Below are positions 1 to 20,153 of a stretch of DNA of 32,000 nt, piece after piece. The notes beneath the pieces were generated by a model. That model ran no database searches. It was not told the origin of the DNA and was given only the letters and a program-made list of their open reading frames with translations. Each line of letters starts with the position of its first letter. Position 1 is the first letter of the stretch. The position numbers and the translations under genes are program-made. The stretch is from the NCBI RefSeq assembly GCF_001997385.1, contig NZ_CP019633.1, forward strand, positions 2,070,001 through 2,102,000, in the 5' to 3' direction. The stretch comes from Sedimentisphaera cyanobacteriorum (lineage in GTDB: Bacteria > Planctomycetota > Phycisphaerae > Sedimentisphaerales > Sedimentisphaeraceae).

Positions 1-464
1 CTAACGAGGAAAGGAATGAGTTGCCTGTTGAAATTGACACCAGTAATGAATCTTATCGTCAACATATGAATAACACAATGATGGTAATGGCACATGTAAA
101 AAACAATCCTGACATGCTGGATAGAATGTTTACCGCCCAGGTTTGCAGAGATGAAATGATGGCAGAAAGTCTTTATAAGGCAATCAAATCTTCAGAAAAG
201 CAAAATAGCATAGCTGTTGTCTTGTGCGGCAGTGGCCATTTGATTCATGGTTCGGGAATTCCATCTCGATTGAAGCGAAGGTTGCCGAATTTAAAAGATA
301 GAATTGTTGTTTTAAGCGGGAGCGGAGATGTGGAATTATCTAAAAGCATGCAAGCAATGAGTAGAGATGTTAAAACTTCTCATCAACAATTGAAATGTTT
401 TGAAACACCTGTAGCGGATTATCTACATGTTGTAAACCTTGATGGACAATTGGATAAGTACTAA
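1..464 (+). CDS. ChaN-family (haem-binding/iron-uptake, Tiki/ChaN superfamily) protein, C-terminal part; 5' end lies off the window
   Basis: The frame is open from nt 3 with no upstream stop; the 'M' at nt 21 in the ORF track is a TTG. Motifs AQVCRDEMMAES and VVLCGSGHL..GSGIPSRL resemble the conserved C-terminal half of ChaN/DUF399 proteins. This is recalled from memory, not searched. Confidence 0.55.
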   Translation, partial: NEERNELPVEIDTSNESYRQHMNNTMMVMAHVKNNPDMLDRMFTAQVCRDEMMAESLYKAIKSSEKQNSIAVVLCGSGHLIHGSGIPSRLKRRLPNLKDRIVVLSGSGDVELSKSMQAMSRDVKTSHQQLKCFETPVADYLHVVNLDGQLDKY

Positions 465-594: not shown

Positions 595-726
595 ATGAAA
601 CCAAAATGTGAAAATTCTAATTGTAACTGTGATGGAAAATGCAAAGTCTGTCAATGCCGTGAAACCGTAGCAATTGCCGTGCAGTCTCAAGTCAAAGAGA
701 AAAAGGCCGAAAGGACTGCAAAATGA
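595..726 (+). CDS. 43-aa cysteine-rich micropeptide (MKPKCENSNCNCDGKCKVCQCRETVAIAVQSQVKEKKAERTAK), below the ORF-track length cutoff
   Basis: Hand translation gives ATG at 595 and TGA at 724-726. That stop overlaps the ATG (723-725) of the radical SAM gene as ATGA. Six Cys lie in residues 5-21. A weak GGAA sits about 7 nt upstream of the ATG. Confidence 0.5.
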   Translation: MKPKCENSNCNCDGKCKVCQCRETVAIAVQSQVKEKKAERTAK

Positions 727-2714
727 ATGCAAAAACTGAAACAATCAATTTTTCCAATAGTAATGGACAAAAGCAGTATCAAACGGAGAAACCCTGTGAA
801 TTTCCTTTTGACTCACGTTTTCGCAGCCACATGGATACTTACGGCTGGAGCCGGGTATCACCAACCGGCAATGAAAAAGAATACCGGCTGAATATCATTA
901 AAAACGGCAGCAGTGAAATGAACAGGCGAACAGCTTACATTCATATTCCGTTTTGCGGTACACTTTGTACGTTCTGTAATTTCATGAGAAAGCCCGGCAC
1001 TGCTGCGATGGCCGCTGATTATGCCCAACTGGTTATACAGGAATTACAATGGTATAAGGGTTCTGGTTACATTTCTCAAGGCGGATTTGAGGCACTGTAT
1101 CTGGGGGGCGGGACACCGTCACTATTACCTGCTGAAGCTATGTCGGAACTGCTGAATACTGCTCGCAAAACACTTGGACTTGACGAAACGGCAGAGATCA
1201 CCATTGAGTCAACGGTACATGACCTTACTCAGGAAAAACTTGATGCAATGGTCCAGTCTGGCGTAACACGCATCAGCCTTGGCGTGCAGACATTTAATTC
1301 TGATATGCGGCGGCAGCTGGGAAGGCTCTCTGATAAGGAAACGATTTACAGCACCATCGAAATGGCGAGAAAGGCCGGAATCAAAACCATTTCTTCTGAC
1401 ATTCTTTATCGCCTGCCGGGTCAAAATCTTCAGGAATTCCAGGCTGATCTTGAATGCGCGGTCGAGTTAAACCTGGATGGTGTATCTTTGTATCCTTTGA
1501 TTGCCATGGGCGGAACACCTTTAGAAAAACGGCTAAAAGAGGGCAAAATTCCTCCATTACCAGATATTTCTATCGAGCTGGAACAATGTAAAGCAACAAA
1601 GAAGTTCCTGATCGATGCTGGCTACCAGCAGGACACGTGCACTCATTTTGTCAAGCCAACAGATCGAAATCTCTATGCGAATATCCGTCTGGATGATGGA
1701 GACTGTCTGCCCATCGGCAGCAGTGCCGGCGGCTATCTTGGCCCGCTTGTTCTTATGAACGCCATGGATAAGCAGATGTATCAGATGCAAATCTCTGGAG
1801 GCAAGTCCGGATATATGGCTTCTGTTCTGCTGCCGTCGAAATCCAGAATGCTAAGGTCGGTTACCGGGCAGCTTCAGCGTGGTTTTCTAAATGTTGAAAC
1901 TGTTTGGCAGGATGGTACGTTGGAACCCAAGACTCTTTTGCAAGATAAGATTGATCAGTACCTTGAAAATGGATTGCTTGAAAAAGATGGACAGCAGTAC
2001 CGATTAACCGATGATGGCTGGTGCTGGTGTTATAACATTGCAGCCGATTTTGCGGATATGGGCAAAAATGAAAGTGCCGCAAGCAGTTCTGTAATGTCAT
2101 TTGCGCAAACAAGCGGCAAAAAGCCGCATCCTCATGCATTAAAATACGGCAGCAAAAAACAAGGTCACTCCATGCGGGGCTTTTCATTAAAAGACATTTC
2201 TGTTCTGGGTGTTATGACTGCGCTGGTGGTTGTTGTCCAATTTATAGCTGCGATGGTTTTACATATGACTGGGATTGCTCTGATCCCCGGCCTGATGCAG
2301 TTTGTAATGGCGTTTGCCTCCTGTATCATTTTGTTTGTCGCCATAAAAAAAGTCCCCAAAGCCGGGGCACTTAGCATTATGACAGCGGTATATTCTCTGG
2401 TAACGATGCTGTTGTCCGGCAGTATTCTGATGGGGTTTGGGCTGGTGATCGGCGGTGTTTTAGGCGACCTGACCGCCAAATGGCTTGGCGGGATTGGGAA
2501 AACGGTTCCGTTGATCATTGCTTTAGTTATCTATCGAACTTCTCAGACAACATTCAGCAAGCTGTATGCATTCATCACTGAGATGACACAGGTGCAATTT
2601 GTATGGTATCTGGTCGTGCTTTCAATCATCGCTTCTGCAATAGGTGCGATTGTCGGAGGATTAGCCGGTATAAAACTAACGGCAAAGATCTCAAAAGCGG
2701 GAGTGATGGCATGA
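723..2714 (+). CDS. HemN/ChuW/HemW-like radical SAM enzyme fused to a C-terminal ECF-transporter S-component-like polytopic membrane domain
   Basis: Carries the CxxxCxxC motif YIHIPFCGTLCTFCNF, the HemN-family blocks LYLGGGTPSLL and RISLGVQTFN. After a Ser/Lys/His-rich linker (about aa 445-490) there are about 170 aa of consecutive hydrophobic helices (VLGVMTALVVVVQFIAAMVL... to the end). An ECF T gene follows with an ATGA overlap. Confidence 0.8.
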   Translation: MNAKTETINFSNSNGQKQYQTEKPCEFPFDSRFRSHMDTYGWSRVSPTGNEKEYRLNIIKNGSSEMNRRTAYIHIPFCGTLCTFCNFMRKPGTAAMAADYAQLVIQELQWYKGSGYISQGGFEALYLGGGTPSLLPAEAMSELLNTARKTLGLDETAEITIESTVHDLTQEKLDAMVQSGVTRISLGVQTFNSDMRRQLGRLSDKETIYSTIEMARKAGIKTISSDILYRLPGQNLQEFQADLECAVELNLDGVSLYPLIAMGGTPLEKRLKEGKIPPLPDISIELEQCKATKKFLIDAGYQQDTCTHFVKPTDRNLYANIRLDDGDCLPIGSSAGGYLGPLVLMNAMDKQMYQMQISGGKSGYMASVLLPSKSRMLRSVTGQLQRGFLNVETVWQDGTLEPKTLLQDKIDQYLENGLLEKDGQQYRLTDDGWCWCYNIAADFADMGKNESAASSSVMSFAQTSGKKPHPHALKYGSKKQGHSMRGFSLKDISVLGVMTALVVVVQFIAAMVLHMTGIALIPGLMQFVMAFASCIILFVAIKKVPKAGALSIMTAVYSLVTMLLSGSILMGFGLVIGGVLGDLTAKWLGGIGKTVPLIIALVIYRTSQTTFSKLYAFITEMTQVQFVWYLVVLSIIASAIGAIVGGLAGIKLTAKISKAGVMA

Positions 2715-3469
2715 TACGCTCATTCATCCAGCGACTGGGACAGCGAAATCCGGATTGTATTTTCGAACAGCTTGATCCAAGATGTAAACTGATCATCCTT
2801 TTTGCTGTTACCATAATGATCATTATAGGCAACAGCGTTTTCTCTGCAGGCCTGTTCATAGCTGCCGGTTTTCTCGCCTTTTATTCGAAGCTGATGAAAT
2901 TGTTTCTCTTTACAACTGTATTGGCGGCCATTTTTTGGGTTATTTTTATGGTGATATTCCAATATGCCCTGGACAAGCCGATGGAAGACCCCAAAGCCAT
3001 GTTTGTTGGAATGGTTTTCAGAGGAACTGCACTGGCAACCACCGGATTATGGTTTGCTGTGACCACTAAATTGCGTGATATGACTATCGCACTTGAAGCC
3101 TGGAGAATCCCCAATATTATTATCCTGCCGCTGACAATTGCGGTTCGGTTTATACCGACACTGCTCAATGAATCCCTGGTCATTCACGATTCCATGCGGC
3201 TTCGACGCTTGGCTCATCGAAAGCGTGACCTGATTACCCAGCCTCATTTGATCGGCCAGAGCTATATATCACTGGTGACAATCCGAAGCCTGAAAATGGC
3301 AGATGAACTGGCCGCCGTTGCTGAGACACGGGGGCTTGCTCGCCCGAACCAAAGACAGTTTCTAAAGCCTGCAAAATTCAGGAAAAACGACTATTGCGCC
3401 CTGAGCATCCTGCTGGCTCTGGCGGCTGTTTTAACCGCAGCGTCATTATATGTAAGGGCCGCTGCATAA
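2711..3469 (+). CDS. ecfT: ECF transporter transmembrane (T) component, EcfT/CbiQ family
   Basis: ATG 2711 overlaps the upstream TGA as ATGA. The protein is polytopic and has a CbiQ-like region (IILPLTIAVRFIPTLLNESLVIHDSMRLR). It lies between an S-like domain and, beyond the island, a tandem ABC ATPase. Confidence 0.75.
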   Translation: MIRSFIQRLGQRNPDCIFEQLDPRCKLIILFAVTIMIIIGNSVFSAGLFIAAGFLAFYSKLMKLFLFTTVLAAIFWVIFMVIFQYALDKPMEDPKAMFVGMVFRGTALATTGLWFAVTTKLRDMTIALEAWRIPNIIILPLTIAVRFIPTLLNESLVIHDSMRLRRLAHRKRDLITQPHLIGQSYISLVTIRSLKMADELAAVAETRGLARPNQRQFLKPAKFRKNDYCALSILLALAAVLTAASLYVRAAA

Positions 3470-3576
3470 ATAATTCGCTCTTTTAAAAGTAAATAATTCC
3501 GGCCTTTCGCACAGGCCATAAGGATGGCTGACCCTGTTTGCGGACGGAATCGAAATCAAAAGTAAAAGCCTTTAGA

Positions 3577-3765
3577 AACGTTTTCGGATGCTCCCGGACG
3601 CTTTTCGCGGCTTCCCGAACGGCATTCGGAGTGTCCCGGACGGCGTTCCAGACTCCCCAAACGCTTTCCGGGGCGTTCCAGAATGCTTTTGGAATGTTCC
3701 AAAACGCTTTCGGGGCGTTCCGGACGCAATCCGGGGCGTTTTGCAACGAATCAAAATGCCGTTAA
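3577..3765. repeat. Nine head-to-tail 21-bp repeats, no indels (consensus about AACGCTTTCGGGGCGTTCCGG)
   Basis: Hand-parsed unit starts are 3577, 3598, 3619, 3640, 3661, 3682, 3703, 3724 and 3745. The best units contain the inverted pair AACGC..GCGTT. Unit junctions carry CC(G/C)G(G/A)ACG. Confidence 0.85.
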
Positions 3766-3828
3766 AACCCTTGACGCCGGACAATATCCGGCTATAATAC
3801 GACTTGTTTTGCCCGGCGGCGTAGCCGG
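3719..3828 (+). repeat. Promoter/junction module, copy 1 (last two 21-bp units + promoter + 5' hairpin)
   Basis: Near-identical to 6275-6387: tccggacgcaatccggggcgttt ... aacgaatcaaaatgccgt ... atatccggctataatacgacttgttttgcccggcggcg.agccgg. Confidence 0.85.
3771..3798 (+). promoter_or_regulatory. Sigma70-type promoter TTGACG-16 nt-TATAAT with an imperfect palindrome CCGGAcaatATCCGG in the spacer
   Basis: The hexamers were read directly from the sequence. Downstream is the hairpin GCCCGGC-ggcgta-GCCGGGgGC, then the Zn-ribbon gene at 3932. Confidence 0.55.
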
Positions 3829-3931
3829 GGGCGATTAATAAGCAAATGCAGGTAAAAATGTATCGACCGCCTTTTAATTATCCGAATAAGAGGAGTCTGT
3901 CCAATCATTGTTGGGCCTTACCGGGGGAAAT

Positions 3932-4462
3932 ATGCCTCTGAGGAAATGTAAGGATTGTGGCAACTCCGTTAGTAGCACTGCGAAAATCTGCCCTCACTGC
4001 GGCAGGCCGATGCAAAGCAGGGATATTATTTCATCTCTCGCTAGATTTTTTGTCATCGGCTTCGTCATAATCCCCATCATCATTTCAATCTTCATGTCGG
4101 TATACCACTCCGGCACAAGCACTGACTCCAACGGCAACCACGCAACTTCATCTGCTAGGGTTCCAAAGACTCCAAAGATCGACAAATCTGAGAAGATGCA
4201 GGCCGATCGCCTTAATCTCATTGAGAGACTTCAAAGGGAGGGCATCTTCGGCGACATCATCCCAAGATCTTCCGGCGCGACAATAGTTGTCAAACCAGCG
4301 TTTTACACGCTCGATTTCAAAGATAAGCAGTCGTTTGTTTCTGTTGTGTATGCGTACTACTTCGATGGTTTGACCCCGTATACGCCAATCCTTTTACGAG
4401 ACTCGCGCACCAACAATAACATCGGTTCCTTTACAGTAGAACTCGGTTTAGATATCAAATGA
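3932..4462 (+). CDS. Zinc-ribbon protein with one TM helix and a C-terminal domain of about 85 aa of unknown function
   Basis: ATG 3932 is preceded by GGGGGAAAT. It has the motif CKDCGNSVSSTAKICPHCG and the TM segment FFVIGFVIIPIIISIFMSVY. A low-complexity S/T/K linker follows, then LNLIERLQREGIF...VELGLDIK. Confidence 0.6.
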   Translation: MPLRKCKDCGNSVSSTAKICPHCGRPMQSRDIISSLARFFVIGFVIIPIIISIFMSVYHSGTSTDSNGNHATSSARVPKTPKIDKSEKMQADRLNLIERLQREGIFGDIIPRSSGATIVVKPAFYTLDFKDKQSFVSVVYAYYFDGLTPYTPILLRDSRTNNNIGSFTVELGLDIK

Positions 4463-4520
4463 CGCAGCCCGAAGGTGTTATGAAGAAACCATATAACTAT
4501 TGTTATGCCATCAAGGAAAC

Positions 4521-5372
4521 ATGATGCGGAATACTAAGCTGTTAAAGAAAGCCTTATTGTTAGTCGTTGCTACTGGTTTGATTGGACTTATTATCTGTGC
4601 CGTCTACATCCACAAAGATACGTCGCTTGATAGTCTTTCAGAAATCCCTGCACGAGCAACATCAAGTGGACTGTCCGGACAACTAAAAATCGGCGTTATT
4701 GGGGACAGCTGGGTTGCACGTCAGAAACTGGACTACGCAATTGAATCAACGGTCGCCGAATCTGGATTCGAGACAGTAGTTCTTAGCTCGGGTCATCCAG
4801 GGGCAAAGAGTCGGCAAATATATCGAAACCTCTTCTTAGAAAGTGGAAACAAAAACTCAAGCAATGCTCTGTTCATGGATGATGATTTGGATTACTTGGT
4901 AGTTGTTGCTGGGGTAAACGATTCTGCTGGGCACATTGGAAAGGCATTTTACTCTCATCATATGCTTCTCATCGTTCAGGCAGCATTAGCTCGTGGAATA
5001 AAACCTGTAATTGTCGAAGTTCCAGAATATGGAATAGAAGATACTCCATCAGTTGGTTTGCTGTCGTGGGTGAAACGGTCAATTTACCTTTGGCTGTTTG
5101 ATGGTGGCAAGGTGGATGTGATAAGAGAATATAGAAAGGCACTTCAAGAAGAACTTCAAGCATCAGGTATCGATGACAAAGTTTTTCTTGTTAGATTCTC
5201 GTCAATCGCTAATGACTACAATGCCAGCAAAGATCTCTACGCAAATTCATCACATCTAAATCACGATGGATACTCGAAATTGGGTAAACTGATAGCCGAT
5301 AGCATAACTGAATGGCATAACAAAGCCATGCACTCGGACGGGAATTCCGCTGCGCTTCATTTCCGCCGGTGA
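4521..5372 (+). CDS. N-terminally membrane-anchored SGNH/GDSL-family hydrolase
   Basis: ATGATG at 4521 follows AAGGAA. The TM segment is ALLLVVATGLIGLIICAVYI. SGNH blocks are GVIGDSWV (I), SSGHPGA (II), VVAGVNDS (III) and SSHLNHDGY (V, with Asn where the DxxH Asp is usual). Confidence 0.7.
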   Translation: MMRNTKLLKKALLLVVATGLIGLIICAVYIHKDTSLDSLSEIPARATSSGLSGQLKIGVIGDSWVARQKLDYAIESTVAESGFETVVLSSGHPGAKSRQIYRNLFLESGNKNSSNALFMDDDLDYLVVVAGVNDSAGHIGKAFYSHHMLLIVQAALARGIKPVIVEVPEYGIEDTPSVGLLSWVKRSIYLWLFDGGKVDVIREYRKALQEELQASGIDDKVFLVRFSSIANDYNASKDLYANSSHLNHDGYSKLGKLIADSITEWHNKAMHSDGNSAALHFRR

Positions 5373-5400
5373 TGGCAAGCGTTAGCATTCGGAGGAAAGT

Positions 5401-6015
5401 ATGGCTTGGTTCGTCATAGCGATAATTGTAGCCGCAGTCATTTATGTATGGGTAAAGCGAAAAATAAGCCGGCCAGACCTCACAATCCTGCCAGAACGCT
5501 TCGTGGTTTTTGATCTTGAAACTACCGGCTTAAAGCCAGATACTCACGAAATCATTGAAATCGGAGCAATCCGAGTGAATCGAGACTCTGGTAAGCACGA
5601 TACATTTCAAGCGTTGGTCCGGCCCACTAAGAAGATTCCAAAAAAGATCACTGGAATTACCGGCATTACCCAAGATATGGTAGAGAAAGACGGTGATTTT
5701 TTAGAGACAGCTCTCCCCCAATTCATTGAATTCGTAAGTGATCTACCACTCGTGTCCTTCAATGCTGAATTTGATATGGCTTTTCTGAATGCCGCAATTA
5801 GTAAAACTCAGGTTGGTGCACTTGCCAATAACCGTGTTTCGTGTGCCCTGAAAATGGCTCGTCGCGCATGGCCCGGCAGGAAGAGCTACCGTCTCAGTGA
5901 TCTTGCAAAAGATGGGAGGTTGTCTTCAGATGATACCCATCGCGCCCTTGGTGACTGCAAACGTGCGATGGTCGTTTATACGGCAGCCGCTGCCAAACTG
6001 CGAAGTGCAACATAG
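5401..6015 (+). CDS. N-terminally membrane-anchored DEDDh 3'-5' exonuclease (DnaQ/epsilon-like domain)
   Basis: The TM segment MAWFVIAIIVAAVIYVWV is followed by KRKISR. Exonuclease motifs are ExoI VVFDLETTGL, ExoII SFNAEFDMAFL and ExoIII THRALGDC. GGAGGAAAGT precedes the ATG. Confidence 0.8.
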   Translation: MAWFVIAIIVAAVIYVWVKRKISRPDLTILPERFVVFDLETTGLKPDTHEIIEIGAIRVNRDSGKHDTFQALVRPTKKIPKKITGITGITQDMVEKDGDFLETALPQFIEFVSDLPLVSFNAEFDMAFLNAAISKTQVGALANNRVSCALKMARRAWPGRKSYRLSDLAKDGRLSSDDTHRALGDCKRAMVVYTAAAAKLRSAT

Positions 6016-6055
6016 ACACAAATTAAAGGTGTCCGGTGCTTTTTTCCTACCTAAT

Positions 6056-6280
6056 GCAGGTCAATTTTTATGCCGCCTTTACTGTAAACCGCTATTGCGG
6101 CGTGTTCTCTACGGCAAAGTCCAAAAACCGATAGCCCTCTTTTAATACACGCTGGCCGGCTACGAGCTGGATGGGATAATTAAAAAGCGGCCCATCTGTT
6201 ACCACCGTGTTCAACTGGCCGGAAGAATTGAAAATAAGAAAAGGTGTCTGGGAAGCAGTCCCGATTTATCGGGCTCCGGA
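6056..6280. repeat. Repeat A, copy 1 (about 225 bp)
   Basis: Aligns by eye along its whole length with 11246-11470, with scattered substitutions and a 1-nt indel. It contains the structured segment GCCGC-cttta-CGGT-aa-ACCG-ctatt-GCGGC and the hairpin CCCGAtttaTCGGG. Confidence 0.85.
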
Positions 6281-6387
6281 CGCAATCCGGGGCGTTTGGG
6301 AACGAATCAAAATGCCGTCAAAAAAACCCTTGCAGCGGGATAATATCCGGCTATAATACGACTTGTTTTGCCCGGCGGCGCAGCCGG
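6275..6387 (+). repeat. Promoter/junction module, copy 2
   Basis: Near-identical to 3719-3828 (see that feature). It is directly fused to the end of Repeat A copy 1. Confidence 0.85.
6330..6357 (+). promoter_or_regulatory. Sigma70-type promoter TTGCAG-16 nt-TATAAT (paralogue of 3771-3798)
   Basis: The hexamers were read directly from the sequence. The spacer is CGGGAtaatATCCGG. It lies upstream of the RM-like trio, which starts at about 6414. Confidence 0.5.
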
Positions 6388-6413
6388 ACAGCCGATATGG
6401 GAAATGGCAGATT

Positions 6414-7076
6414 ATGCCGATGGAAGAACAAGTCAAATCAAAGCAGAGGGTAGCCGATCATGGCGAGGTTTTGACCGGTAAGCGGGAGGTCAATGCCATG
6501 CTGGATCTGGTCAAGCAGGAGACCGAGCGAATCGATTCCCGCTTTCTGGAACCGGCCTGCGGGGCGGGCAACTTTCTGGCGGAGATTCTCGAACGGAAGC
6601 TGCGCGTCGTGGAGAAGCGCTATGCCAAGAGCCAACTGGAATACGAGCGCAACGCGGTGCTCGCCGTCTCCAGTATCTACGGCATCGATATTCTTGAAGA
6701 TAACATCGAGCAGTGCCGACAGCGGCTGTTCGGCATCTTCGACCGGAACTACCTGCGGCTCTTCTCAAGCAAGACGAACGACCAATGCCGCGAAACGGTC
6801 CGCTTCATCCTCGAACGCAACATCGTTCACGGCGACGCGCTGACCCTCAAGACGGTCGGCGAGCAACCGGGCTACATCGTCTTTTCCGAATGGTCGCCGG
6901 TCAACGGCAGTTTCCTCAAACGCCGCGACTTCACCTTTCACGGTCTGCTGGAACATGAGCATATACGGGGACTGCCGCTGTTCTCCGACCTGGGCGAGGA
7001 TGTGTTCATCCCCACGCCGGAGAAGGAATACCCGCTGGCGCATTTCCTGGAGGTGGCCGATGCTGACAAGCAATAA
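6414..7076 (+). CDS. Methyltransferase-fold protein with SAM-binding motif I but no recognisable NPPY/DPPY motif IV (degenerate paralogue of the next gene)
   Basis: [17 protein letters not shown]...[12 protein letters not shown] parallels [17 protein letters not shown]...[12 protein letters not shown] in the downstream methyltransferase. IYGIDI and IVHGDALT are present. Where xxGNPPY is expected the sequence reads [11 protein letters not shown]. The start could be 6414 or 6420. Confidence 0.65.
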
Positions 7077-8628
7077 CTACAACCCCGACGTGCTGACCTG
7101 CATCGCCAACCTGTCGAGCGACGAGGTCTTCACGCCGCCGGGGCTGGTCAACCGGATGCTCGACCTGCTGCCGCCGGAACTCTGGAGCGACCCGCAGGCG
7201 ACCTTTCTCGATCCGGGCTGCAAGTCGGGCGTGTTCCTGCGCGAGATCGCCAAGCGGCTCGACGCCGGGCTGGAGCGGCGCATCCCCAACCGGCAGGAGC
7301 GGATGAACCACATCTTCAAGCACCAGCTCTACGGCCTGGCCATCACGGAACTGACGGCGCTGCTCTCGCGCCGCTCGGTCTATTGCTCCAAGACGGCCAA
7401 CGGCAAGTATTCCGTCTGCGAGACCTTCGACGCCCCCGAGGGCAACATCCGCTTCGGGCGCGTGGAGCATACCTGGGTGAACGGCCGCTGCGTCTTCTGC
7501 GGGGCGAACGAGGAAAACTATAAGCGCGGAGAAGAACTCGAAACCCACGCCTACGAGTTCATCCACACCGAAAAACCGGAGGAGATATTCAATATGAAAT
7601 TCGACGTCATCATCGGCAACCCGCCCTACCAGTTGAGCGACGGGGGCGCTGCCGCCAGCGCCATGCCTCTATACCATCGGTTCATCCAGCAAGCGAAGAA
7701 ACTTAACCCTCGTTATTTGACGATGATCGTTCCAAGCCGCTGGTTTTCAGGCGGGAAGGGGCTGGACGAATTTAGGGCAGAGATGCTTCAAGATAAGCGA
7801 ATGCAACACCTTGTCGACTACCCAGTATCAGCGGAATGCTTCCCCGGAGTTTCTATCAAAGGGGGAGTGTGTTACTTCCTCTGGGTAAGGGACTATACAG
7901 GTCCTTGTTCGGTAACTACAATACGCGGAGGGGTGAGCACATGTTCTATCCGACCATTGCTCGAATCGGGCATTTCTGATTTTATTCGATACAACGAGGC
8001 TATTCCGATTCTAAACAAGGTGCGCAGACATTCAGAGGCTACCTTCGACAAAGAAGTTAGCGCAAGAAAGCCTTTTGGACTACCTACTGATTTCCGACAG
8101 TTCAAGAAGCACCGATTCGAAGCGGCAGTCAAGATATACGCCAACAAGCAATTCGGCTACATTGAGCGAGTAAATATCCCCGAGCGGACTGAGTGGATCA
8201 ACAGATGGAAGATCTATCTGACCCGTGCATATGGTGCTGGGGAAGATTTCCCGCACCAAATTCTTAATAAGCCGTTCTTGGGCGAACCTGGTAGTTGTTG
8301 CACTGAGACATACTTGGTGATTGGGCCATATGCTTCGAAGAAAACTGCACAGGCTGTATTGTCGTACATTAGAACTCGCTTCTTTCGCTTTCTTGTTCTC
8401 CTGAAGAAGAATACACAAGACTCGCCTCGTGGAGTATTCACGTTGGTTCCAATACAAGACTTCTCAAGGCATTGGACCGACGAAAAGCTCTACAAGAAGT
8501 ACGGCCTGACCGCAGACGAAATCGCCTTCATTGAATCGATGGTCCGCCCGATGGAGGCGAACGGGGAGGACCTGTCTGCGTGCGACGCACAGGCAGATGC
8601 GTCAGACGGGGAGGCGGACGATGAGTGA
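7060..8628 (+). CDS. Eco57I-like (gamma-class) N6-adenine DNA methyltransferase
   Basis: ATG 7060 follows GGAGGTGG and overlaps the upstream gene by 17 nt. Motif I is [12 protein letters not shown] and motif IV is VIIGNPPYQ. There is a Cys cluster (C..C...CVFC) between them. The C-terminal block [24 protein letters not shown] is typical of this family as I recall it. Confidence 0.85.
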
Positions 8629-11167
8629 CGGCTTTTTCCCGCCGCGCCCGAAATCGCGGCCCACGATCTACGCCTACGAGGACACCAACCCGCAATACGC
8701 CGGGCTGCTCAAGGTGGGCTATACGACTGTGGACGCGCAGAGCCGCGTGGCGCAGCAGTATCCGACGCTGCGGCCCGGCAAGCCGCCCTACCGAATCGTG
8801 CTCGAAGAACCGGCCATGCGCAACGACGGGACCACCTTCACCGATCATCACGTCCACGGCATGTTGCGGATCAACGGCGTGAAGAACGAGGGCGGCGAGT
8901 GGTTCCGCTGCACGGTGGAGCAGGTCAAGGCGGCGATCATCGCCGTGCGCACCGGCCAACTGAACGAGGAGAACCGGTCGCTGGATTTCGCCCTGCGCCC
9001 CGAGCAGGAAGCGGCGGTCGAGAAGACGGCGGCCTACTTCGCCGCCTGGCGCAGGGACAAGGCCAACGGCGACAAGCCGCCGCATTTCCTGTGGAACGCC
9101 AAGATGCGCTTCGGCAAGACCTTCGCCGCCTATCAACTGGCGAAGCGGATGAACTGGCGCAAGGTGCTGGTGCTGACCTTCAAGCCGGCGGTGCAGAGCG
9201 CGTGGGAAGAGGACCTGAAGCAGCACGTCGCTTTCGCGGGTTGGCAGTTCATCAAGCCCGGCGGCCTGACCTATGAGGAGGCAGACAAGGGGAAGCCCTT
9301 CGTCTGCTTCGGCTCGTTTCAGGACTACCTGGGCAAGAACAAGAGCACGGGCGGCATCAAGACCAAGAACGAATGGGTTCACGCGACGAACTGGGATTGC
9401 GTGATCTTCGACGAATACCACTACGGCGCCTGGCGCGAGAACGCCAAGGAACTGTTCGAGGCAGAGGACAAGAAGGAGATGGCCTTCGCCGAGGGCGAGG
9501 GGCTGGAAGACTTTGACGAAGAGATCATGCCGATCACGACGGAGCACTACCTGTATCTGTCGGGCACGCCGTTCCGCGCCATCGCCTCGGGCGAGTTCAT
9601 CGAGGAGCAAATCTTCAACTGGACCTATTCGGACGAGCAGCGCGCCAAGCGGGACTGGGAGGGCGAGAACAACCCCTACGCCTGCCTGCCGCGCATGGTG
9701 CTCATGACCTATCAGCTGCCCGACGCGATCCGGGAAATCGCCATGCAGGGCGAGTTCGACGAGTTCGACCTGAACGTGTTCTTTTCCGCCGAGGGGGTGG
9801 GCGAACACGCGAAGTTCAAGTATGAGGACGAAGTGCAGAAGTGGCTCGACCTGATCCGCGGCGCGTTTCAGGCGGCGACGGTGGACAACCTGAAGCTGGG
9901 GACGAAGAAGCCGCCGATGCCGTATTCCGATGCGCGGCTGCTGAATCTCCTATCGCATACCTTTTGGTTCCTGCCGAGCGTGGCGGCGTGTCATGCCATG
10001 CGCAACCTGCTGGCGAAGAAGCAGAATCGCTTCTATCAGGACTATAAGATCCTCGTGGCGGCGGGGAGCGCCGCCGGAATCGGCGTCGCCGCGCTGCCGC
10101 CGGTGCTGGACGCCATGGAAGACCCGCTGGAATCGAAGACCATCACCTTGTCATGCGGGAAGTTGACGACCGGCGTGACGGTGCGGCCCTGGACGGGCAT
10201 CTTCATGCTGCGCAACGCTTCCACGCCGGAGACCTACTTTCAGGCGGCCTTTCGGGTGCAATCGCCCTGGACGGTGGCGAACCCCGACGGCGACGCGCCG
10301 AACCGCGAGCAGATCATCAAGGAGGAGTGTTACGTCTTCGACTTTGCGCCGGACCGTGCCTTGCGGCAGATCGCCGATTACAGTTGCCGCTTGAATGTGG
10401 ACGAGGCCAACCCCGAGAAGAAGGTCGAGGAGTTCATCAGCTTCCTCCCGGTGCTGGCCTATGACGGCAGTTCGATGAAGCAGATCGACGCGGCGGGGAT
10501 TCTCGACATGGCGATGAGCGGGACGACGGCGACGCTGCTGGCGCGGCGCTGGGAAAGCGCGCTGCTGGTGAATGTGGACAACGACACGCTGAAGCGGTTG
10601 ATGGCGGACGAAGCGGCGATGAAGGCGCTGATGAGCATCGAGGGATTCCGCAACCTCAATCAGGACATCGAGACGATCATCAACAAGTCGGAAGCCGTGA
10701 AGAAGGCGCGTAAGGAAAAGAACGACGAGGACATGACGAAGGAAGAGAAGAAGGAACTGACCGAGGAAGAGAAGGAATTCAAGAGCAAGCGCAAGCAGAT
10801 ACAGGAGAAGCTCATCAAGTTCGCCACGCGCGTTCCGATCTTCATGTATCTGACCGACTATCGGGAGCGCTGCCTGAAGGACGTGATCACCCAACTGGAG
10901 CCGGGCTTGTTCAAGAAGGTGACGGGCCTGAGTGTGAAGGATTTCGAGTTGCTGGTGAGCCTCGGCGTCTTCAACAGCGCCCTGATGAACGACGCCGTCT
11001 ACAAGTTCAAGCGTTACGAAGACGCCAGTCTGAGTTATACCGGCATCAACCGGCACGAGGGAGAAGACATCGGCCTCTACGATACAGTCCTCACTCCCAA
11101 GGATGCACTGAAGGTTTTCGAGAACGTACAGGCAGGTGCCGGATATGAATTTCAAAGAATGGGCTAA
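8621..11167 (+). CDS. T5orf172/GIY-YIG-like N-terminal domain fused to an SF2 (ResIII/SNF2-like) helicase with a Lys/Glu-rich coiled-coil region
   Basis: ATG 8621 overlaps the methyltransferase stop (ATGAGTGA). The N-terminal motifs are TIYAYED...LLKVGYTT...R...GGEWFRC. Helicase motifs are [19 protein letters not shown] and [12 protein letters not shown]. The late block is [13 protein letters not shown]. Confidence 0.85.
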
Positions 11168-11245
11168 CAAGGCGCTGCACCGGACGACGCTGCGCGCCGC
11201 TGATGCTGGGCGTTGGATAGAAAGGGAACATGGATAACCTTCAAG

Positions 11246-11470
11246 GCAGGTCAATTTCTATGCCGCCTTTACGGTAAACCGCTATTGCGGCGCGTTCTTG
11301 ACGGCAAAGTCCAAAAACCAATAGCCATCTTTTAATACACGTTTGCCCGCTGCGAGTTGGATGGGATAATTAAAAAGCGGCCCCCCGTTACCACCGTGTT
11401 CAACTGGCCGGAAGAATTGAAAATAAGAAAAGGTGTCTGGGAAGCAGTCCCGATTTATCGGGCTCCCGGA
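11246..11470. repeat. Repeat A, copy 2
   Basis: See 6056-6280. Here the - strand reading frame is intact (...FFRPVEHGGNGGPLFNYPIQLAAGKRVLKDGYWFLDFAVKNAPQ*). Copy 1 carries a frameshift but conservative substitutions, which suggests a gene 3'-end relic. Confidence 0.85.
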
Positions 11471-11533
11471 CAGCCGTCGAATCCAGCGGTTGGATTTGAA
11501 AATAATTGTGCAGCAGACTTTTGAGTAATTGTA

Positions 11534-13039
11534 ATGCTGAAAATACAAGACTTAACATTTACATATACCCGGCAGGAGAAACCTGCTTTAAGCAATATCA
11601 ATCTGGATATTTCACCGGGCAAGCTGGTGCTTTTGACCGGGCCTTCCGGCAGCGGAAAATCTACGCTTGTGCATTGCATCAACGGCCTGGCTCCGCAGCA
11701 CTACGGAGGGAAGCTTGATGGAGAAATATGGATTGCCGGACGAGAAACCGCCGGAAAAACACTTTGGCAAATCAGTGAGTTGACAGGCACCGTATTTCAA
11801 AACCCCAATACCCAGTTTTTCCAGCTTACGGTCGAAGATGAAATCGCCTTTGGCCTTGAGCATTCAGGTCTTGACCGGCAGGAAATAAAAAAACGAATAG
11901 ATAAAGCCATAGAAGATATTGAGATCGAGTCTCTTAGAAATCGAGATATTTTCACCCTGTCCTCCGGCGAAAAACAAAAGGTGGCCTTGGCATCTATCAT
12001 TGCGATGGATCAGCCACTGCTTCTTCTGGATGAGCCGACGGCAAATCTCGATATCCCCTCAATTCATGAATTGAAAAAACTGCTGGCCAAATTAAAGAAT
12101 CAAGGCAGGACAATTATCGTTTCCGAACATCGACTGTGGTATTTAAGAGGCCTTGCCGATCAGGTGATCGTAATTAAAGACGGACAACTGATTTATGACG
12201 GAAAACCGGAAATACTGAATTCATCTCAATTCCGCAATGAAATTGGTTTACGCATATGGGCTAAGCCTCCGAAAATTACTGATTCCGAACATAATAATCT
12301 CAGACAGCGGACCGTACTGGATGTAAGCCGTCTTTCAGGGGGAGCAGGAAATAAAAAAGACATTCTCAACAACGTGAACTTTTCATTCAACGCAGGCGAA
12401 TGCATTGCCATTATGGGGCATAATGGAGTTGGTAAGACAATGTTTTCTCGCTTACTGACCGGCTTGCAAAAAGAGAGCCATGGAATCATTAAAATCAACG
12501 GCACTGCTTTAAAGCACAAAAGCCGAATCGGACAGATCGGATGTGTTACCCAGCAGGCTGAACAGCAGTTATTCTCTGATACGGTTCTTGGTGAATTACT
12601 TCTTAATCCAAAAGACAATGCGACGGAGGCCGATAAAGCAAAAGATATTTTAAGGCAATATGGTCTGATTGCCTTGAAAGACCGTCACCCGCAAACCCTC
12701 TCCGGCGGCGAAAAACAGCGTTTGGCAATTGCCGCCTCAATTGCAATGAATAATGAAATAATAATCCTCGACGAACCCACCAGCGGCATGGATATGAAGA
12801 GGATGAAAATGCTCGCTCAGGAAGTTAAGAATCTGTGCAGTCAGGGCATACTTGTCATTATCATTACACATGATATCGAATTGGTCTCGCTATGCTGCGA
12901 CAAGATAGCCTGGATGGAAAATGGAACCGTTGCCAAAACGTTAGAACGCGATCAATATAATGAATTATTTATTAAACTATTGAAATTTGACAGAACAGAA
13001 AGGCATAATGATGAAATGCATGGTTGTTTACTCAAGTAA
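11534..13039 (+). CDS. ecfA: ECF-type ABC transporter ATPase, two fused nucleotide-binding domains (EcfA1-EcfA2-like)
   Basis: Domain 1 has GPSGSGKST / LSSGEKQKV / LLLLDEPT. Domain 2 has GHNGVGKT / LSGGEKQRL / IIILDEPTSG. Confidence 0.85.
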   Translation: MLKIQDLTFTYTRQEKPALSNINLDISPGKLVLLTGPSGSGKSTLVHCINGLAPQHYGGKLDGEIWIAGRETAGKTLWQISELTGTVFQNPNTQFFQLTVEDEIAFGLEHSGLDRQEIKKRIDKAIEDIEIESLRNRDIFTLSSGEKQKVALASIIAMDQPLLLLDEPTANLDIPSIHELKKLLAKLKNQGRTIIVSEHRLWYLRGLADQVIVIKDGQLIYDGKPEILNSSQFRNEIGLRIWAKPPKITDSEHNNLRQRTVLDVSRLSGGAGNKKDILNNVNFSFNAGECIAIMGHNGVGKTMFSRLLTGLQKESHGIIKINGTALKHKSRIGQIGCVTQQAEQQLFSDTVLGELLLNPKDNATEADKAKDILRQYGLIALKDRHPQTLSGGEKQRLAIAASIAMNNEIIILDEPTSGMDMKRMKMLAQEVKNLCSQGILVIIITHDIELVSLCCDKIAWMENGTVAKTLERDQYNELFIKLLKFDRTERHNDEMHGCLLK

Positions 13040-13541
13040 AACCGGAAATACAAAAATAATTGCTGAGGCGATCCATAAGGCATTGCCCCAGGACACGGAG
13101 CTTTATCCTGTGGAAAACGCCCCCTCTTCTGATCATTACGATTTCATTGCAGTTGGCGGTTGGGTTGATAAAGGAATGCCCGATGAGGCAATACAAAACT
13201 ATATGCAGAAAATCCATAAAAAAAGTATTGGAATATTTTTGACACTGGGTGCCTATCCTGATTCTCAACATGCTGCGGAATCTTTGCAGAAAGCATGCGA
13301 ATTATTAAATGACAATACAATTCTCGGATCATTTATTTGTCAGGGCAAGGTTGACCCTAAGCTCATAGAGATGATGGCTAAAATGACAAAAGACAAGCCG
13401 GAACACCCCCATGCCATGAATGATGAAAGAAAGGCCAGGTTAGCCGAAGCTGCCAAACACCCCAACGATCAGGACTGCCGAAATGCCGCAGAGACTTTTA
13501 AAAAAATGATCGAAGAATTAAAGGGGCAATCCAATGCGTAA
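13008..13541 (+). CDS. Flavodoxin-family protein
   Basis: Has VVYSSKTGNTK, an FMN phosphate-binding loop, near the N terminus. The start (ATGATG at 13008) follows AAAGG and overlaps the end of the ATPase gene. Confidence 0.7.
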   Translation: MMKCMVVYSSKTGNTKIIAEAIHKALPQDTELYPVENAPSSDHYDFIAVGGWVDKGMPDEAIQNYMQKIHKKSIGIFLTLGAYPDSQHAAESLQKACELLNDNTILGSFICQGKVDPKLIEMMAKMTKDKPEHPHAMNDERKARLAEAAKHPNDQDCRNAAETFKKMIEELKGQSNA

Positions 13542-13956
13542 AATGACCGAAACGGAAATTAACGAACTCGTAAAGAATTCAAATTGGGCAACCATTTGCA
13601 CGGTTACTCCTGATGGGCTTCCTTACGCAATCGAAGCCACCTATTTTATCGATGGCAAATACATTGGCTTTATGATCAACCCGAGAGGTAGGACAATGCA
13701 AAACCTAAAGCATAATCCGAACCTAATCCTAAAAATAACTCAGGCCAGTGGCGATCTTTCCAAATGGGCAGGAGTGAGCCTCTTTGGAACAGGCCAAAAT
13801 ATAACTGATTCTGATGCAATTCGAAAAGGCTGGGAGCTACTCGGAGAGGTTATGAATACTGATTACACCACAGTTACAGAAAAATGCAATAATACGGAAC
13901 AACGTTCGCCTTATCTCAAATGCACGATCTCTCAGATTACAGGGAGGAGTAGCTGA
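13534..13956 (+). CDS. Pyridoxamine-5'-phosphate-oxidase-like (FMN-binding split-barrel) protein
   Basis: Overlaps the flavodoxin stop by 8 nt. The pattern N.WATICTVTPDGLPYAIEATYF..G.. is typical of the PNPOx/Nim/HugZ-like fold family. Assigned by pattern memory only. Confidence 0.55.
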   Translation: MRKMTETEINELVKNSNWATICTVTPDGLPYAIEATYFIDGKYIGFMINPRGRTMQNLKHNPNLILKITQASGDLSKWAGVSLFGTGQNITDSDAIRKGWELLGEVMNTDYTTVTEKCNNTEQRSPYLKCTISQITGRSS

Positions 13957-14591
13957 GTTAACTACCCGCGTTCAGAAAAAACAATAAAGTGACAAAAAAT
14001 TATTTTTGAAGCATAATTGGCATTTTCTGTCCGTTTTTTATAGGACACCACAAGCCATTAAGATTTGCAGACACTACAACTGTACGGGTTCAGTGTGATT
14101 TGGACAAATCCGTTTCACAGTTAAGACACTTTTTATGCCTTTGGCGGGGCTGTCTTATCAGGTTTTTTTAAGGCATGGCAATGCTCTCAATTGCCCAGTT
14201 TGTAAAATGGGATGGCAGGTGTATGACTGCCACCCCAACGAAAATTCGTCGCCTTGAACTGGCTATCCCTAGCAGATTGCAACCAAGGCCTCATGCCACC
14301 TATATAATTTGCTCCTTGATGATGGTGTCGTCCTCAGATTTTGATTTTGGCGGCACCAAATTACAGTTTTTTCACGAAAATGAGGGGGACGGAGAGGTAT
14401 AGTTATAACTTAAGCTTTAACAGGAGGTTAGGTAACATATGTATAAACGGCGGAGCAAAATTGTCCCACCTGGCGGGCGGTTGAAAGTTGTACCCCTGTA
14501 ACCGAAATACCTGTAATAATAGACTGCAAGCAGAGATTCAAAGGACATTTGCAGTAGGTTATTATGGGAGAAAACAGGAGTGTACACAGAT

Positions 14592-16091
14592 ATGGATCAA
14601 TGGATCGAGTTAAGGCGTCAAATTCGTAATGGAGAGGTTTCCCTCCGTCAGTTGGAGCGGGAGACAGGTATTCACCGGCAGACCCTGCGTAAAATCCGGG
14701 ACAACAGTGAGCCGCCGGGCTACCGGCGTACCAAGCCGGCTGGAAAGACCAAGATTGGTCCGTATCTGGGTCGCATCAAGGAGATCATTGACGCTGACAA
14801 GCAGATGCCTAAAAAGCAGCGTCACACAGCCAAGAAGATTTTAGAGACGCTGGAGTCTGAAGGATTTACCGGCAGTTACACGATCGTCAAAGATGCCGTC
14901 CGCCAGATTAAAAAGACTTCCCGGGAAGTGTTCATGCCACTGAGCCAGCGACCGGGCGAGGCGCAGGTGGATTTCGGCCATGCCCTGACCAGCTTCGACG
15001 GCACCCTGAAAAAAATCGTATTCTTTGTCATGACCATGGTTCATTCGGATGCGATGTTCGTAATGGCGTTTCCCCGTGAATGTACCGAAGCTTTTCTGGA
15101 GGCCCATGTACGGGCGTTTAAGTTCTTCGGCTGTGTTCCCAGGCGGATCATTTATGATAATACCCGTGTAGCTATTACAAAGATACTGAAACATCATAAA
15201 CGCAAATATACCAGTGAGTTTAAGCGACTCATCAGTCATTACCTGTTCGAGCCTCACTTCTGTAACGTTCGAAGACCCAACGAGAAGGGTATTGTCGAAG
15301 GCAGTGTCAAGTATTCCAGGCTCAACTTCATGGTCCCCGTGCCGCAGGTTACCGATTACGATGACCTCAATCGGCTCTTGTATAACTGCTGCCAATCCGA
15401 CCTGAAGCGTATCCTCCGCGGCAAACGTTCTCTCAGTAAAGAACAGTTGCTGGCCGAAGACCGTGTCGCAGCCATCGCGTTGCCGGATGACACGTTTGAC
15501 TACCGCAAATCGGCATCGACATTTGCCAGCAGTGAATCACTTGTCCGTTATGACACCAACGATTATTCAGTCCCGGTAAGTTCAGCTCATCATCAGACGA
15601 CGATCAAGGCGTCAGTCAGCTTTATCGAGGTCTATCAACAGGACCGGCTCATCGCCAGGCACCGTCGCTGCTGGGACCGAGAACGGCAGATATTCGATCC
15701 GATGCACTATTTAGAGCTTTTGGAACGCAAGCCGGGTTCCCTGGATCATGCTCGTCCTCTGGAGGATTGGTCGCTGCCGAGATGTTTTAACACGTATCGC
15801 CGATGTCTTGAGGCGAATCGTGAAAACGGCACCAGGGAATATATCCAGATATTGCTCTTGCTGAACAAATATTCAATCCGACAAATATCGAAAGCCATCT
15901 GCAAGGCCCTCAATCATCGGATCTACTGTTATTGTGCGGTGCAGCAGTTCCTGCTGACGGCTGAAGATTATGCCTTTACGACCTTCAGCCTTGCCGGGCG
16001 GGACCATCTTCGTCACATTGTGGTTCGTCAGACCTCAGTTGCCGATTATCGTTCACTGACACAGGGAGGCTGTCATGTCAAAAGAGCGTAA
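14592..16091 (+). CDS. istA: IS21-family transposase IstA
   Basis: N-terminal HTH (LRQLERETGIHRQTLRKI) followed by a DDE/rve core. ATG 14592 lies 11 nt after AGGAG; the ORF-track start at 14580 is a GTG inside the RBS. The gene overlaps istB in the manner typical of IS21. Confidence 0.85.
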   Translation: MDQWIELRRQIRNGEVSLRQLERETGIHRQTLRKIRDNSEPPGYRRTKPAGKTKIGPYLGRIKEIIDADKQMPKKQRHTAKKILETLESEGFTGSYTIVKDAVRQIKKTSREVFMPLSQRPGEAQVDFGHALTSFDGTLKKIVFFVMTMVHSDAMFVMAFPRECTEAFLEAHVRAFKFFGCVPRRIIYDNTRVAITKILKHHKRKYTSEFKRLISHYLFEPHFCNVRRPNEKGIVEGSVKYSRLNFMVPVPQVTDYDDLNRLLYNCCQSDLKRILRGKRSLSKEQLLAEDRVAAIALPDDTFDYRKSASTFASSESLVRYDTNDYSVPVSSAHHQTTIKASVSFIEVYQQDRLIARHRRCWDRERQIFDPMHYLELLERKPGSLDHARPLEDWSLPRCFNTYRRCLEANRENGTREYIQILLLLNKYSIRQISKAICKALNHRIYCYCAVQQFLLTAEDYAFTTFSLAGRDHLRHIVVRQTSVADYRSLTQGGCHVKRA

Positions 16092-16860
16092 ATCGACCGT
16101 GCTGCTGCAACATCATCTCAAGCAGTTGAAACTTCCGACCATGCTTAAAGAATATCCGCTGCTGGCCAAATCCTGCAGCCGGGAAAAATGTGATTACCCG
16201 ACTTACCTGCTGCGGCTGTGCGAAAAAGAGGTTGCCGACCGGCAGCGGCGTGCGATGGACCGGCGAATCAAGGCAGCGAAGTTCCCGTTGCTCAAAACCA
16301 TTGACAGCTTTGACTTTGCCTCACAGAAGTCCGTCAACGAACCGCTCGTCCGGGAGTTATTACGGTGCGAGTTCATTGATCAATATGAAAATGTATTACT
16401 GATCGGCAACAGCGGAACGGGCAAGACCCATCTGGCCACTGCACTGGGGTTCGCTGCCTGTTGTCAGGGCTGCAAAGTCCGATTCTTCGGATGCACGGCA
16501 TTGGTGACACAGTTACTGGAAGCTCGGGAAGATCGGCAGTTGCAGCGAATGCTGACACAGCTCCAAAAACAGGACCTGCTGATCCTGGATGAACTGGGCT
16601 ATGTGCCATTCAGCAAAGCCGGTTCTGAGTTGCTCTTTGAGGTCGTCAGCCGGGCTTACGAACGGCAGAGCCTGATCGTGACGACCAACCTTCCGTTCGA
16701 GAACTGGACTGAAGTGTGCGGCTCCGAGAGGCTCACCGGGGCGATGTTGGATCGGCTCACGCACCGGGTCCATATCATCGAGGCCAACGGTAGTAGTTAT
16801 CGGCTTGATCAGAGCCGTAAACGCCTGGCAAAACAGCAGAAAAGAGCTGCCGAGAATTGA
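16075..16860 (+). CDS. istB: IS21-family helper ATPase IstB
   Basis: Walker A GNSGTGKTHLA and Walker B LLILDELGY. The size and position immediately after istA fit IstB. Confidence 0.9.
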   Translation: MSKERKSTVLLQHHLKQLKLPTMLKEYPLLAKSCSREKCDYPTYLLRLCEKEVADRQRRAMDRRIKAAKFPLLKTIDSFDFASQKSVNEPLVRELLRCEFIDQYENVLLIGNSGTGKTHLATALGFAACCQGCKVRFFGCTALVTQLLEAREDRQLQRMLTQLQKQDLLILDELGYVPFSKAGSELLFEVVSRAYERQSLIVTTNLPFENWTEVCGSERLTGAMLDRLTHRVHIIEANGSSYRLDQSRKRLAKQQKRAAEN

Positions 16861-17077: not shown

Positions 17078-17119
17078 TCGACTTTGAGCTCTTTGGAAAA
17101 TTTATCATGGATGGTAAAG

Positions 17120-17290: not shown

Positions 17291-17377
17291 AATTTAGTAA
17301 AGTTCTCGCGTAAAGAACAGCATTAAGCCGGATTATTGTAAATTAGTACATATAATATGGACAAAAGAAGGTTAAAA

Positions 17378-18382: not shown

Positions 18383-18400
18383 GTTTTTGACGTATTTCTC

Positions 18401-20141: not shown

Positions 20142-20153
20142 GAGAGAAATGTG

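Follow-up and report, generated by a model that had tools for sequence, protein, structure and literature searches.

A radical SAM enzyme fused to the S component of an ECF transporter in Sedimentisphaera cyanobacteriorum, a candidate for coupled haem import and anaerobic haem degradation

Why would an enzyme of the radical S-adenosylmethionine (SAM) type be built into a subunit of a membrane transporter? The question is raised by a single open reading frame (ORF) of Sedimentisphaera cyanobacteriorum, which lies in the 32,000-nucleotide stretch analysed here (contig NZ_CP019633.1, positions 2,070,001 to 2,102,000; hereafter the window, to which all window coordinates refer). In its 663-residue product, a HemN-like/ChuW-like radical SAM enzyme runs through a linker into the S component of an energy-coupling factor (ECF) transporter. 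The reading that we favour, and consider likely, is that a dedicated ECF haem importer (S, EcfT and EcfAA′) is tethered to an anaerobic haem ring-opening enzyme, with haem probably moving directly from the importer into the enzyme, which would remove the iron.

Domain searches and structure prediction bore out the architecture proposed by a first-pass annotation, which had been made from the DNA without database searches and had described a HemN-type radical SAM core, a flexible linker and a C-terminal transmembrane (TM) region resembling an S component. Pfam placed Radical_SAM at residues 72-244 (E = 1.7e-22), and the CGTLCTFC, GGGTP and GVQTF blocks that it had listed are present as PFCGTLCTFC (C78/C82/C85, encoded at nucleotides 954-977), GGGTP (residues 128-132) and LGVQTF; a weak HemN_C match at residues 402-433 (18.8 bits) stayed under its cut-off of 24. 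The C-terminal region does show the similarity to S components on which that annotation had staked its proposal, with Trep_Strep (PF09605) matching residues 490-609 at 41.1 bits against a gathering score of 28.7. In an AlphaFold2 (AF2) model of the full-length protein, the radical SAM domain was predicted at a predicted local distance difference test score (pLDDT) of ~90 and six helices span residues 489-658, with the intervening residues 451-486 predicted to be disordered (pLDDT 30-38).

A survey for the same fusion elsewhere, also suggested by the first-pass annotation, was made by searching 5.8 billion proteins for full-length homologues. It returned 17 other clusters with uninterrupted architecture, 56-90% identical to the window protein and all 641-665 residues long, from NCBI, JGI, ENA and Logan assemblies. 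In the genome collection, two relatives come from metagenome-assembled genomes (MAGs), one at 87% identity under the title 'uncultured Candidatus Kuenenia sp.' and the other at 84% under 'uncultured Pirellulales bacterium'. Both domains appeared in the precomputed Pfam column for 16 of the 17 clusters, and the remaining one, P0018, which was listed as Radical_SAM only, has C-terminal 180 residues that match the S-domain profile with 277 bits. The linker differs in sequence, and slightly in length, from cluster to cluster, a stop was never seen, and both domains are highly conserved in the family alignment. These data bear directly on the alternative that adjacent radical SAM and S genes were merely joined by a sequencing or assembly indel. 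Other lineages do carry the two genes unfused, and a one-base difference can create such fusions, as in the EcfA::flavodoxin reading of the related locus L002 described below. The artefact is nonetheless excluded for practical purposes, because the clusters keep one ORF across differing linkers, in four independent data sources and down to 56% identity, so that most assemblies would have to share independent errors at different linker sequences. The fusion is a genuine two-domain protein under selection.

To which family does the enzyme half belong? The best NCBIfam model was TIGR04107, 'heme anaerobic degradation radical SAM methyltransferase ChuW/HutW', which matched residues 42-444 with 292.8 bits, ran end to end (model positions 16-415 of 419) and led the next family by 118 bits. 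The HemW profile TIGR00539 reached 174.7 bits (cut-off 205.4) and covered model positions 2-269 of 361 only, and the HemN profile TIGR00538 reached 142.5 bits against a cut-off of 324.95. In a HMMER alignment, Y56/H58/C62/C66/C69 of HemN correspond to Y72/H74/C78/C82/C85 of the fusion, and E145/Q172/R184/D209 to E162/Q189/R201/D226. All nine of these residues, which we take from the HemN literature to bind the cluster and SAM, are invariant across the fusion family, as is GGGTP; the fourth HemN cysteine, C71 of CxxxCxxCxC, is replaced by F87. HemN was also the best match of the radical SAM model in the Protein Data Bank (PDB; Foldseek, 1OLT, TM-score 0.77 over 443 columns). At the site of HNxxYW, a HemW feature (PMC10114718), the fusion clade has DRNLY, and canonical ChuW/HutW proteins have ERN[L/I]Y. 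Automated JGI annotation calls two fusion members 'anaerobilin synthase'.

The membrane half proved to be a complete unit. A word-indexed search with the S domain alone gave one match, and an exhaustive profile search of 1.84 billion representatives recovered only 36 relatives. The closest are stand-alone proteins of 180-193 residues, and because they align end to end, the fused C-terminus constitutes a complete S-component unit. With six helices in residues 489-663, it has the dimensions of an S component (~160-220 residues, about six TM helices). Modelled alone with its fused and stand-alone relatives, the domain gave six helices at a pLDDT of 88.9 and a predicted TM-score (pTM) of 0.84, and a Foldseek search of the PDB returned the solved S components 5EDL, 4HZU_S and RibU 5KBW as the only matches with a probability >0.9 and a TM-score >0.5, at modest E-values (best 8.6e-3). 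NCBIfam TIGR02185, the MptD family of putative ECF S components, scored 38.7 bits against a cut-off of 76.45, and the Trep_Strep/MptD family is itself annotated only as a 'putative' S component. TM1 contains G496-x3-A500, a candidate for the small-residue motif (AxxxA type) by which S components dock on EcfT; its A500 is at least 90% conserved in 24 fused and stand-alone members.

Because the helices number six, both termini should lie on one side of the membrane. That this side is the cytoplasm is indicated by the K/R-rich segment that precedes TM1, by the loop between TM2 and TM3 (KKVPK) and by the C-terminal tail. The modelled topology is thereby compatible with a cytoplasmic Fe-S/SAM enzyme. 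Just before TM1, the linker carries a semi-conserved HPHxLKYG motif, which the majority of members retain, the 56%-identical P0018 among them, and which is lost in P0015-P0017; it could possibly serve as a haem hand-off site or a docking motif. Together with H514, which is invariant and lies at the outer end of TM1, it might provide haem contacts, and we regard both as candidates.

What, then, does the transporter carry? The stop codon of the fusion gene (TGA, 2712-2714) overlaps the start of ecfT (ATG, 2711-2713), confirming the ATGA coupling seen in the first-pass annotation, and the downstream product is indeed of the CbiQ/EcfT family; the tandem EcfA placed beyond an inserted island is there too, with two ABC_tran domains. 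EcfT orthologues of 249-252 residues hold the same position in loci L003, L006, L015 and L016, and the tandem ATPase gene belongs to the operon in all relatives. DtxR-family regulators, FeoAB and hemP lie upstream of the operon in L001, L015 and L016. The closest stand-alone S components, P0126 and P0127, have their genes immediately after those for HmuY hemophores and ahead of those for EcfT and EcfAA′, and in the P0127 loci a TonB-dependent receptor gene lies upstream of the HmuY gene. In the window, the operon is preceded by the 3′ part of a gene for a ChaN-like haem-binding lipoprotein (PF04187, E = 3.8e-17, profile positions 137-213 of 213), whose full-length orthologues in L006, L015 and L002 have ~300-330 residues and a lipoprotein-type N-terminus (LxGC).

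The accessory genes point the same way. For the Flavodoxin_3 protein of the window, the sole PDB sequence match was 8G64, FldH of Fusobacterium nucleatum (E = 4.8e-16, 31% identity), in an alignment that runs through the helical-cap region. The haem ligand of FldH, His134, is invariant in all eight flavodoxin orthologues, and NCBIfam describes the window protein as BilS-like (108.5 bits). HmuF/FldH traffic haem to HmuW and then reduce anaerobilin (PMC10404700), and the window flavodoxin is a candidate for both roles, haem carrier and anaerobilin reductase. The PNPOx-like protein is co-conserved with the module, with weak PDB matches to Rv2991 and to the haem-binding MSMEG_6519. No riboswitch precedes the fusion gene; the sole one in the window is a cobalamin riboswitch (17098-17301, + strand, 71.8 bits). 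Since it precedes a B12 locus that stands apart, past an IS21 element, and has BtuFCD of its own, and since the relatives have no cob neighbours, a corrinoid was set aside as an unlikely cargo. The first-pass annotation had proposed that import is coupled to radical SAM processing or chaperoning of a tetrapyrrole; gene context strengthens this proposal and narrows it to haem, which we infer to be taken up as an iron source.

That both halves act on one and the same molecule is argued most strongly by the recurrence of their pairing in unfused form. In L017 the gene order is ExbB, ExbD, ChuW/HutW, TonB-dependent receptor, Trep_Strep S component, EcfT, EcfAA′, Flavodoxin_3, PNPOx and TonB, and its ChuW/HutW protein (P0025, 511 bits) lies above the curated cut-off. 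Identity to the window proteins is 52% for PNPOx, 51% for the flavodoxin, 38% for the ATPase and ~24% for the S component. Loci L011/L012 likewise hold a radical SAM protein 38% identical to the N-terminal domain of the fusion, flavodoxins, an orthologous stand-alone S component, EcfT and EcfAA′. Unlike in the fusion, the radical SAM and S genes are parted by the TonB-receptor gene in L017 and by four genes in L011, and the outer-membrane step involves TonB/ExbBD or HmuY, whereas fusion loci have planctomycete PEP-CTERM/DUF1559 genes. L005 has an unfused planctomycete radical SAM gene beside a Flavodoxin_3 gene, without ECF genes. Judged by gene content, the fusion is the covalent form of a pairing that recurs in TonB/ExbBD, type IX secretion system-type and planctomycete-type contexts.

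Known systems resemble each half. ChuW of Escherichia coli O157:H7, HutW of Vibrio cholerae and HmuW of F. nucleatum share with the fusion a HemN-like fold, CxxxCxxC, the residues of two SAM sites, an ERNLY-type motif, the C-terminal domain, a haem-uptake operon context and an HmuF-type partner (PMC10404700; PMC10114718). They differ in being soluble, stand-alone enzymes served by binding-protein-dependent (type II ABC) haem importers, whereas the fusion enzyme is attached to an S subunit. The ECF haem importers LhaSTA of Staphylococcus lugdunensis, SiaFGH of Streptococcus pyogenes and Lsa1836-1840 of Lactobacillus sakei resemble the fusion system in their dedicated S, T and A/A′ components and their iron/haem loci (PMC7299338; bioRxiv 10.1101/864751). 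Their S components are stand-alone, come from Firmicutes and have little mutual sequence similarity (PMC7299338), and none has been reported fused to an enzyme.

What the data show is the conserved architecture, the families to which its parts are assigned, the surrounding genes and the occurrence of the module without fusion; we infer the cargo, ring opening rather than chaperoning, a direct hand-off and the following order of steps. Haem would be captured outside the inner membrane, in the periplasm, perhaps with the help of the ChaN-like lipoprotein encoded upstream, and bound by the S domain, which EcfAA′-driven toppling would carry inward. It would then be released beside the tethered radical SAM domain, where two SAM molecules would allow the porphyrin to be methylated and opened without O2, freeing the iron. 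The HmuF/FldH-like flavoprotein, perhaps with the PNPOx-like protein, would hold haem and reduce the reactive linear tetrapyrrole. Fusion would fix a 1:1 stoichiometry and stop toxic haem from diffusing freely.

Several observations weigh against an importer tethered to a ring-opening enzyme. The ChuW/HutW profile score falls short of the curated cut-off of 400 bits. In a neighbour-joining (NJ) tree — a rough one with 200 bootstraps, containing no characterised ChuW, HutW or HmuW sequence — the fusions form a clade of their own (196 of 200 bootstraps) with the unfused planctomycete relative P0020 (49% identity) and the radical SAM protein of L011 from another lineage (38-39%). This clade is about equidistant from canonical ChuW/HutW (28% identity) and HemW (27%). 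In favour of a ChuW/HutW-like enzyme, eight of the ten nearest relatives tested outside it score above the ChuW/HutW cut-off (443-523 bits; P0022 and P0028 are below); in the tree, these eight form a separate clade (198 of 200). The placement that the first-pass annotation had left to a phylogeny thus came out divided, ChuW/HutW being best by profile and the domain falling outside the ChuW/HutW clade in the tree. Because of the sub-cut-off score and the separate clade, we describe the domain as ChuW/HutW-like and not as a member of the curated equivalog; on present sequences, the fusion clade appears to define a third clade of ChuW-like enzymes. Further, no characterised member of the radical SAM clade or of the Trep_Strep family was found in the searchable literature, the disordered linker means that the full-length AF2 model gives no reading of contact between the domains, and the evidence naming haem as the substrate is all gene context. 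In this genome, finally, an 8-kb insert splits the operon and makes expression of its downstream half uncertain, so that the ecfAA′, flavodoxin and PNPOx genes may no longer be co-expressed with the fusion.

The sub-cut-off score and the position in the tree leave room for the main rival, an importer-tethered haem chaperone, which would pass intact haem to haem-requiring proteins or to cytochrome maturation with no ring cleavage. HemW, a haem-binding protein, is likewise HemN-like, keeps the cluster and SAM sites and lacks the fourth HemN cysteine (PMC10114718). The labels of the related MAGs, Ca. Kuenenia and Pirellulales, would also suit such a protein in a haem-hungry anammox-type planctomycete; anammox bacteria produce very large amounts of haem proteins. 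We nevertheless consider a chaperone unlikely. The HemW profile stays under its cut-off and covers only the N-terminal two thirds, and HNxxYW is absent, with a ChuW-type DRNLY in its place. The conserved partner is an anaerobilin-reductase-like flavoprotein of the HmuF/FldH type, the neighbours are iron-starvation genes (DtxR, FeoAB, hemP) and not genes of cytochrome maturation, and L017 sets the same accessory genes beside a bona fide ChuW/HutW. Quite improbable, in our estimation, is a cargo other than haem, be it another tetrapyrrole (a corrinoid, haem precursor or other porphyrin) methylated on entry, or a modification of a 43-residue peptide in the manner of ribosomally synthesized and post-translationally modified peptides (RiPPs). 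B12 salvage and transport genes do lie 7 kb downstream in the window, but they have their own riboswitch and BtuFCD beyond the IS21 element, and the neighbours in five relatives are iron/haem genes and not cob genes. Pathways to RiPPs and other natural products do employ class C radical SAM methyltransferases (PMC10114718), NocN was the second-best PDB match, and the Cys-rich small ORF, which is conserved, shows translational coupling with the fusion gene; we gave the RiPP variant less weight because ECF systems import whereas RiPP clusters use exporters, and because the small ORF is not universal, being missing in L003 and not called in L005, L011 and L017, which were not scanned for short ORFs.

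An importer tethered to a haem-opening enzyme therefore remains the reading that we prefer, and it can be taken further. Tentatively, and with less conviction than we attach to the tether itself, the complex may act as a membrane-bound 'haem degradosome' working by a kind of group translocation: haem would never be free in the cytoplasm and would be ring-opened at the transporter, possibly by way of the HPH motif, with the HmuF-like flavoprotein docking on the complex. In one MAG (L002), the flavodoxin even reads in frame with the EcfAA′ ATPase, by way of an unverified one-base difference. On the degradosome reading, an ECF transporter would couple its transport step mechanically to chemistry, for which we found no precedent.

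Each of the two processes is known already, ECF haem import (PMC7299338; bioRxiv 10.1101/864751) as well as the degradation of haem without oxygen (PMC10404700, PMC10114718). To the first-pass annotation the fused architecture was not known from earlier work, and the full-text literature that we searched, from which most subscription-journal papers were missing, contained nothing combining anaerobilin or ChuW with ECF transporters, nothing on Trep_Strep function and nothing naming the fusion. In a single polypeptide, the fusion would unite two recently discovered processes, ECF haem import and the cleavage of haem independently of O2. It would extend both from host-associated pathogens to environmental anaerobes in Planctomycetota, possibly including anammox bacteria, which have a large iron and haem economy that is poorly understood. 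S components are usually seen as small, free-standing proteins that topple, and attachment of one to a 50-kDa Fe-S enzyme constrains models of S movement and cargo release; for structural studies of how a substrate is handed on, the fusion provides a 1:1 complex already made. It further gives a functional context to families without a characterised member in the searchable literature, namely Trep_Strep/MptD, Flavodoxin_3 outside Fusobacterium and the PNPOx-like partner.

Table 1. Features of the fusion gene and its operon in the window.
Feature	Coordinates	Strand	Size or basis
Gene fusing a HemN-like/ChuW-like radical SAM enzyme to an ECF S component	723..2714	+	663 aa
Radical SAM (class C, ChuW/HutW-like) domain, aa 29-447	807..2063	+	TIGR04107 292.8 bits
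Linker, aa 448-488, variable, predicted disordered	2064..2186	+	AF2 pLDDT, alignment
Six-helix ECF S-component domain of the Trep_Strep/MptD family, aa 489-663	2187..2711	+	Pfam PF09605
ChaN-like (Cofac_haem_bdg) haem-binding lipoprotein gene, 3′ part; start lies before window	21..464	+	PF04187
Cys-rich small ORF, 43 aa, MKPKCENSNCNCDGKCKVCQC...	595..726	+	TGA overlaps fusion ATG
EcfT (CbiQ family) coupling subunit	2711..3469	+	Pfam CbiQ E 2e-16
Inserted island between ecfT and ecfAA′, not part of system	3480..11500	.	ORF families, GC, relatives
EcfA-A′ tandem ATPase, 501 aa, two ABC_tran domains	11534..13039	+	
HmuF/FldH-type flavodoxin-like protein (Flavodoxin_3)	13008..13541	+	PF12641 E 5.6e-53
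PNPOx-like split-barrel protein	13534..13956	+	Pfam PNPOx_N E 1.5e-13

The Cys-rich small ORF recurs ahead of the fusion gene in L001 (9873-10004), L002 (9874-10017), L006 (7869-7943), L015 (7873-8004) and L016 (7880-8023), and is absent in L003, on the P0015 branch. Its products have 24-47 residues around a core CxCxxK[C/Y]KVCxC, and in the window, L001 and L015 an ATGA overlap links it to the fusion gene. It matched no family in Pfam or NCBIfam, and synonymous variation of its Cys and Gly codons argues that it is a coding gene; its product could be a mini-protein that binds metal or iron, a leader with a regulatory role or a peptide that serves as substrate.

The island that splits the window operon is ~8 kb long, with GC up to 0.62, and is absent from L001, L003, L006, L015 and L016, in which ecfT and ecfA adjoin, overlap or are no more than ~20 nt apart; all operon ORFs of the window are intact despite the insertion. 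It holds two cassettes, one with a Zn-ribbon protein, a GDSL hydrolase and an RNase T-like exonuclease, and the other with an MmeI/Eco57I-type methylase and a T5orf172+ResIII protein. Each cassette lies between copies of one left repeat (3594-3828, 6275-6387) and of one right repeat (6053-6277, 11243-11466), the copies being 91-94% identical, and inverted arms pair 3862-3883 with 6174-6195 and 3867-3883 with 11364-11380. These repeats suggest a mobile element bounded by terminal inverted repeats and inserted twice in tandem. Other mobile-element genes lie around the locus at 14580-16860, 28661-29737 and 30199-31802 (- strand), namely istA/istB of IS21, which come immediately behind the PNPOx gene, an rve-family transposase, and a serine resolvase beside an ORF without known function; the region is heavily rearranged relative to its relatives.

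In L002 (12672-14747), EcfAA′ and the HmuF-like flavodoxin read as one 691-residue ORF owing to a single-base difference from the window, and the 120 best homologues of the flavodoxin include no further fusion of this kind. This unverified reading represents either another transporter-enzyme fusion, specific to that lineage, or an indel error in that MAG.

Beyond the IS21 element, the cobalamin riboswitch is followed (17741-28641) by genes for a PEP-CTERM protein, a 542-residue protein of unknown function and an N-methyl/DUF1559 pseudopilin-like protein, and then by CobT, CobS, CobC, BtuF, BtuD, BtuC, CobO, CobU and CobQ. A similarly organised PEP-CTERM/middle/DUF1559 trio precedes the haem ECF operon in L001, L003, L006, L015 and L016; between the two trios, only the DUF1559 proteins are homologous (32% identity). 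PEP-CTERM and N-methyl/DUF1559 proteins near the locus fit Planctomycetota, and such trios may form a planctomycete-specific outer-envelope module for tetrapyrrole capture that replaces TonB receptors.

Two further neighbourhoods extend the catalogue of ChuW-like loci. Trep_Strep ECF and ChuW-like loci of different lineages repeatedly contain DUF2325 and DUF2023 proteins along with a classical flavodoxin (L008 10735-11865, L011 2042-2693 and L006 3086-3445), and these uncharacterised families may belong to an anaerobic haem-utilisation pathway. L018 (8001-13032) encodes P0028, a sub-threshold ChuW-like radical SAM protein (323 bits) that is sister to the fusion clade in the NJ tree. Its gene is preceded by DtxR-FeoA, FeoB and hemP and followed by genes for an N-methyl protein, a CbiX-type chelatase-like protein, Flavodoxin_5 and DUF454, without ECF genes, which by its gene content is another variant of an iron-/haem-linked neighbourhood.

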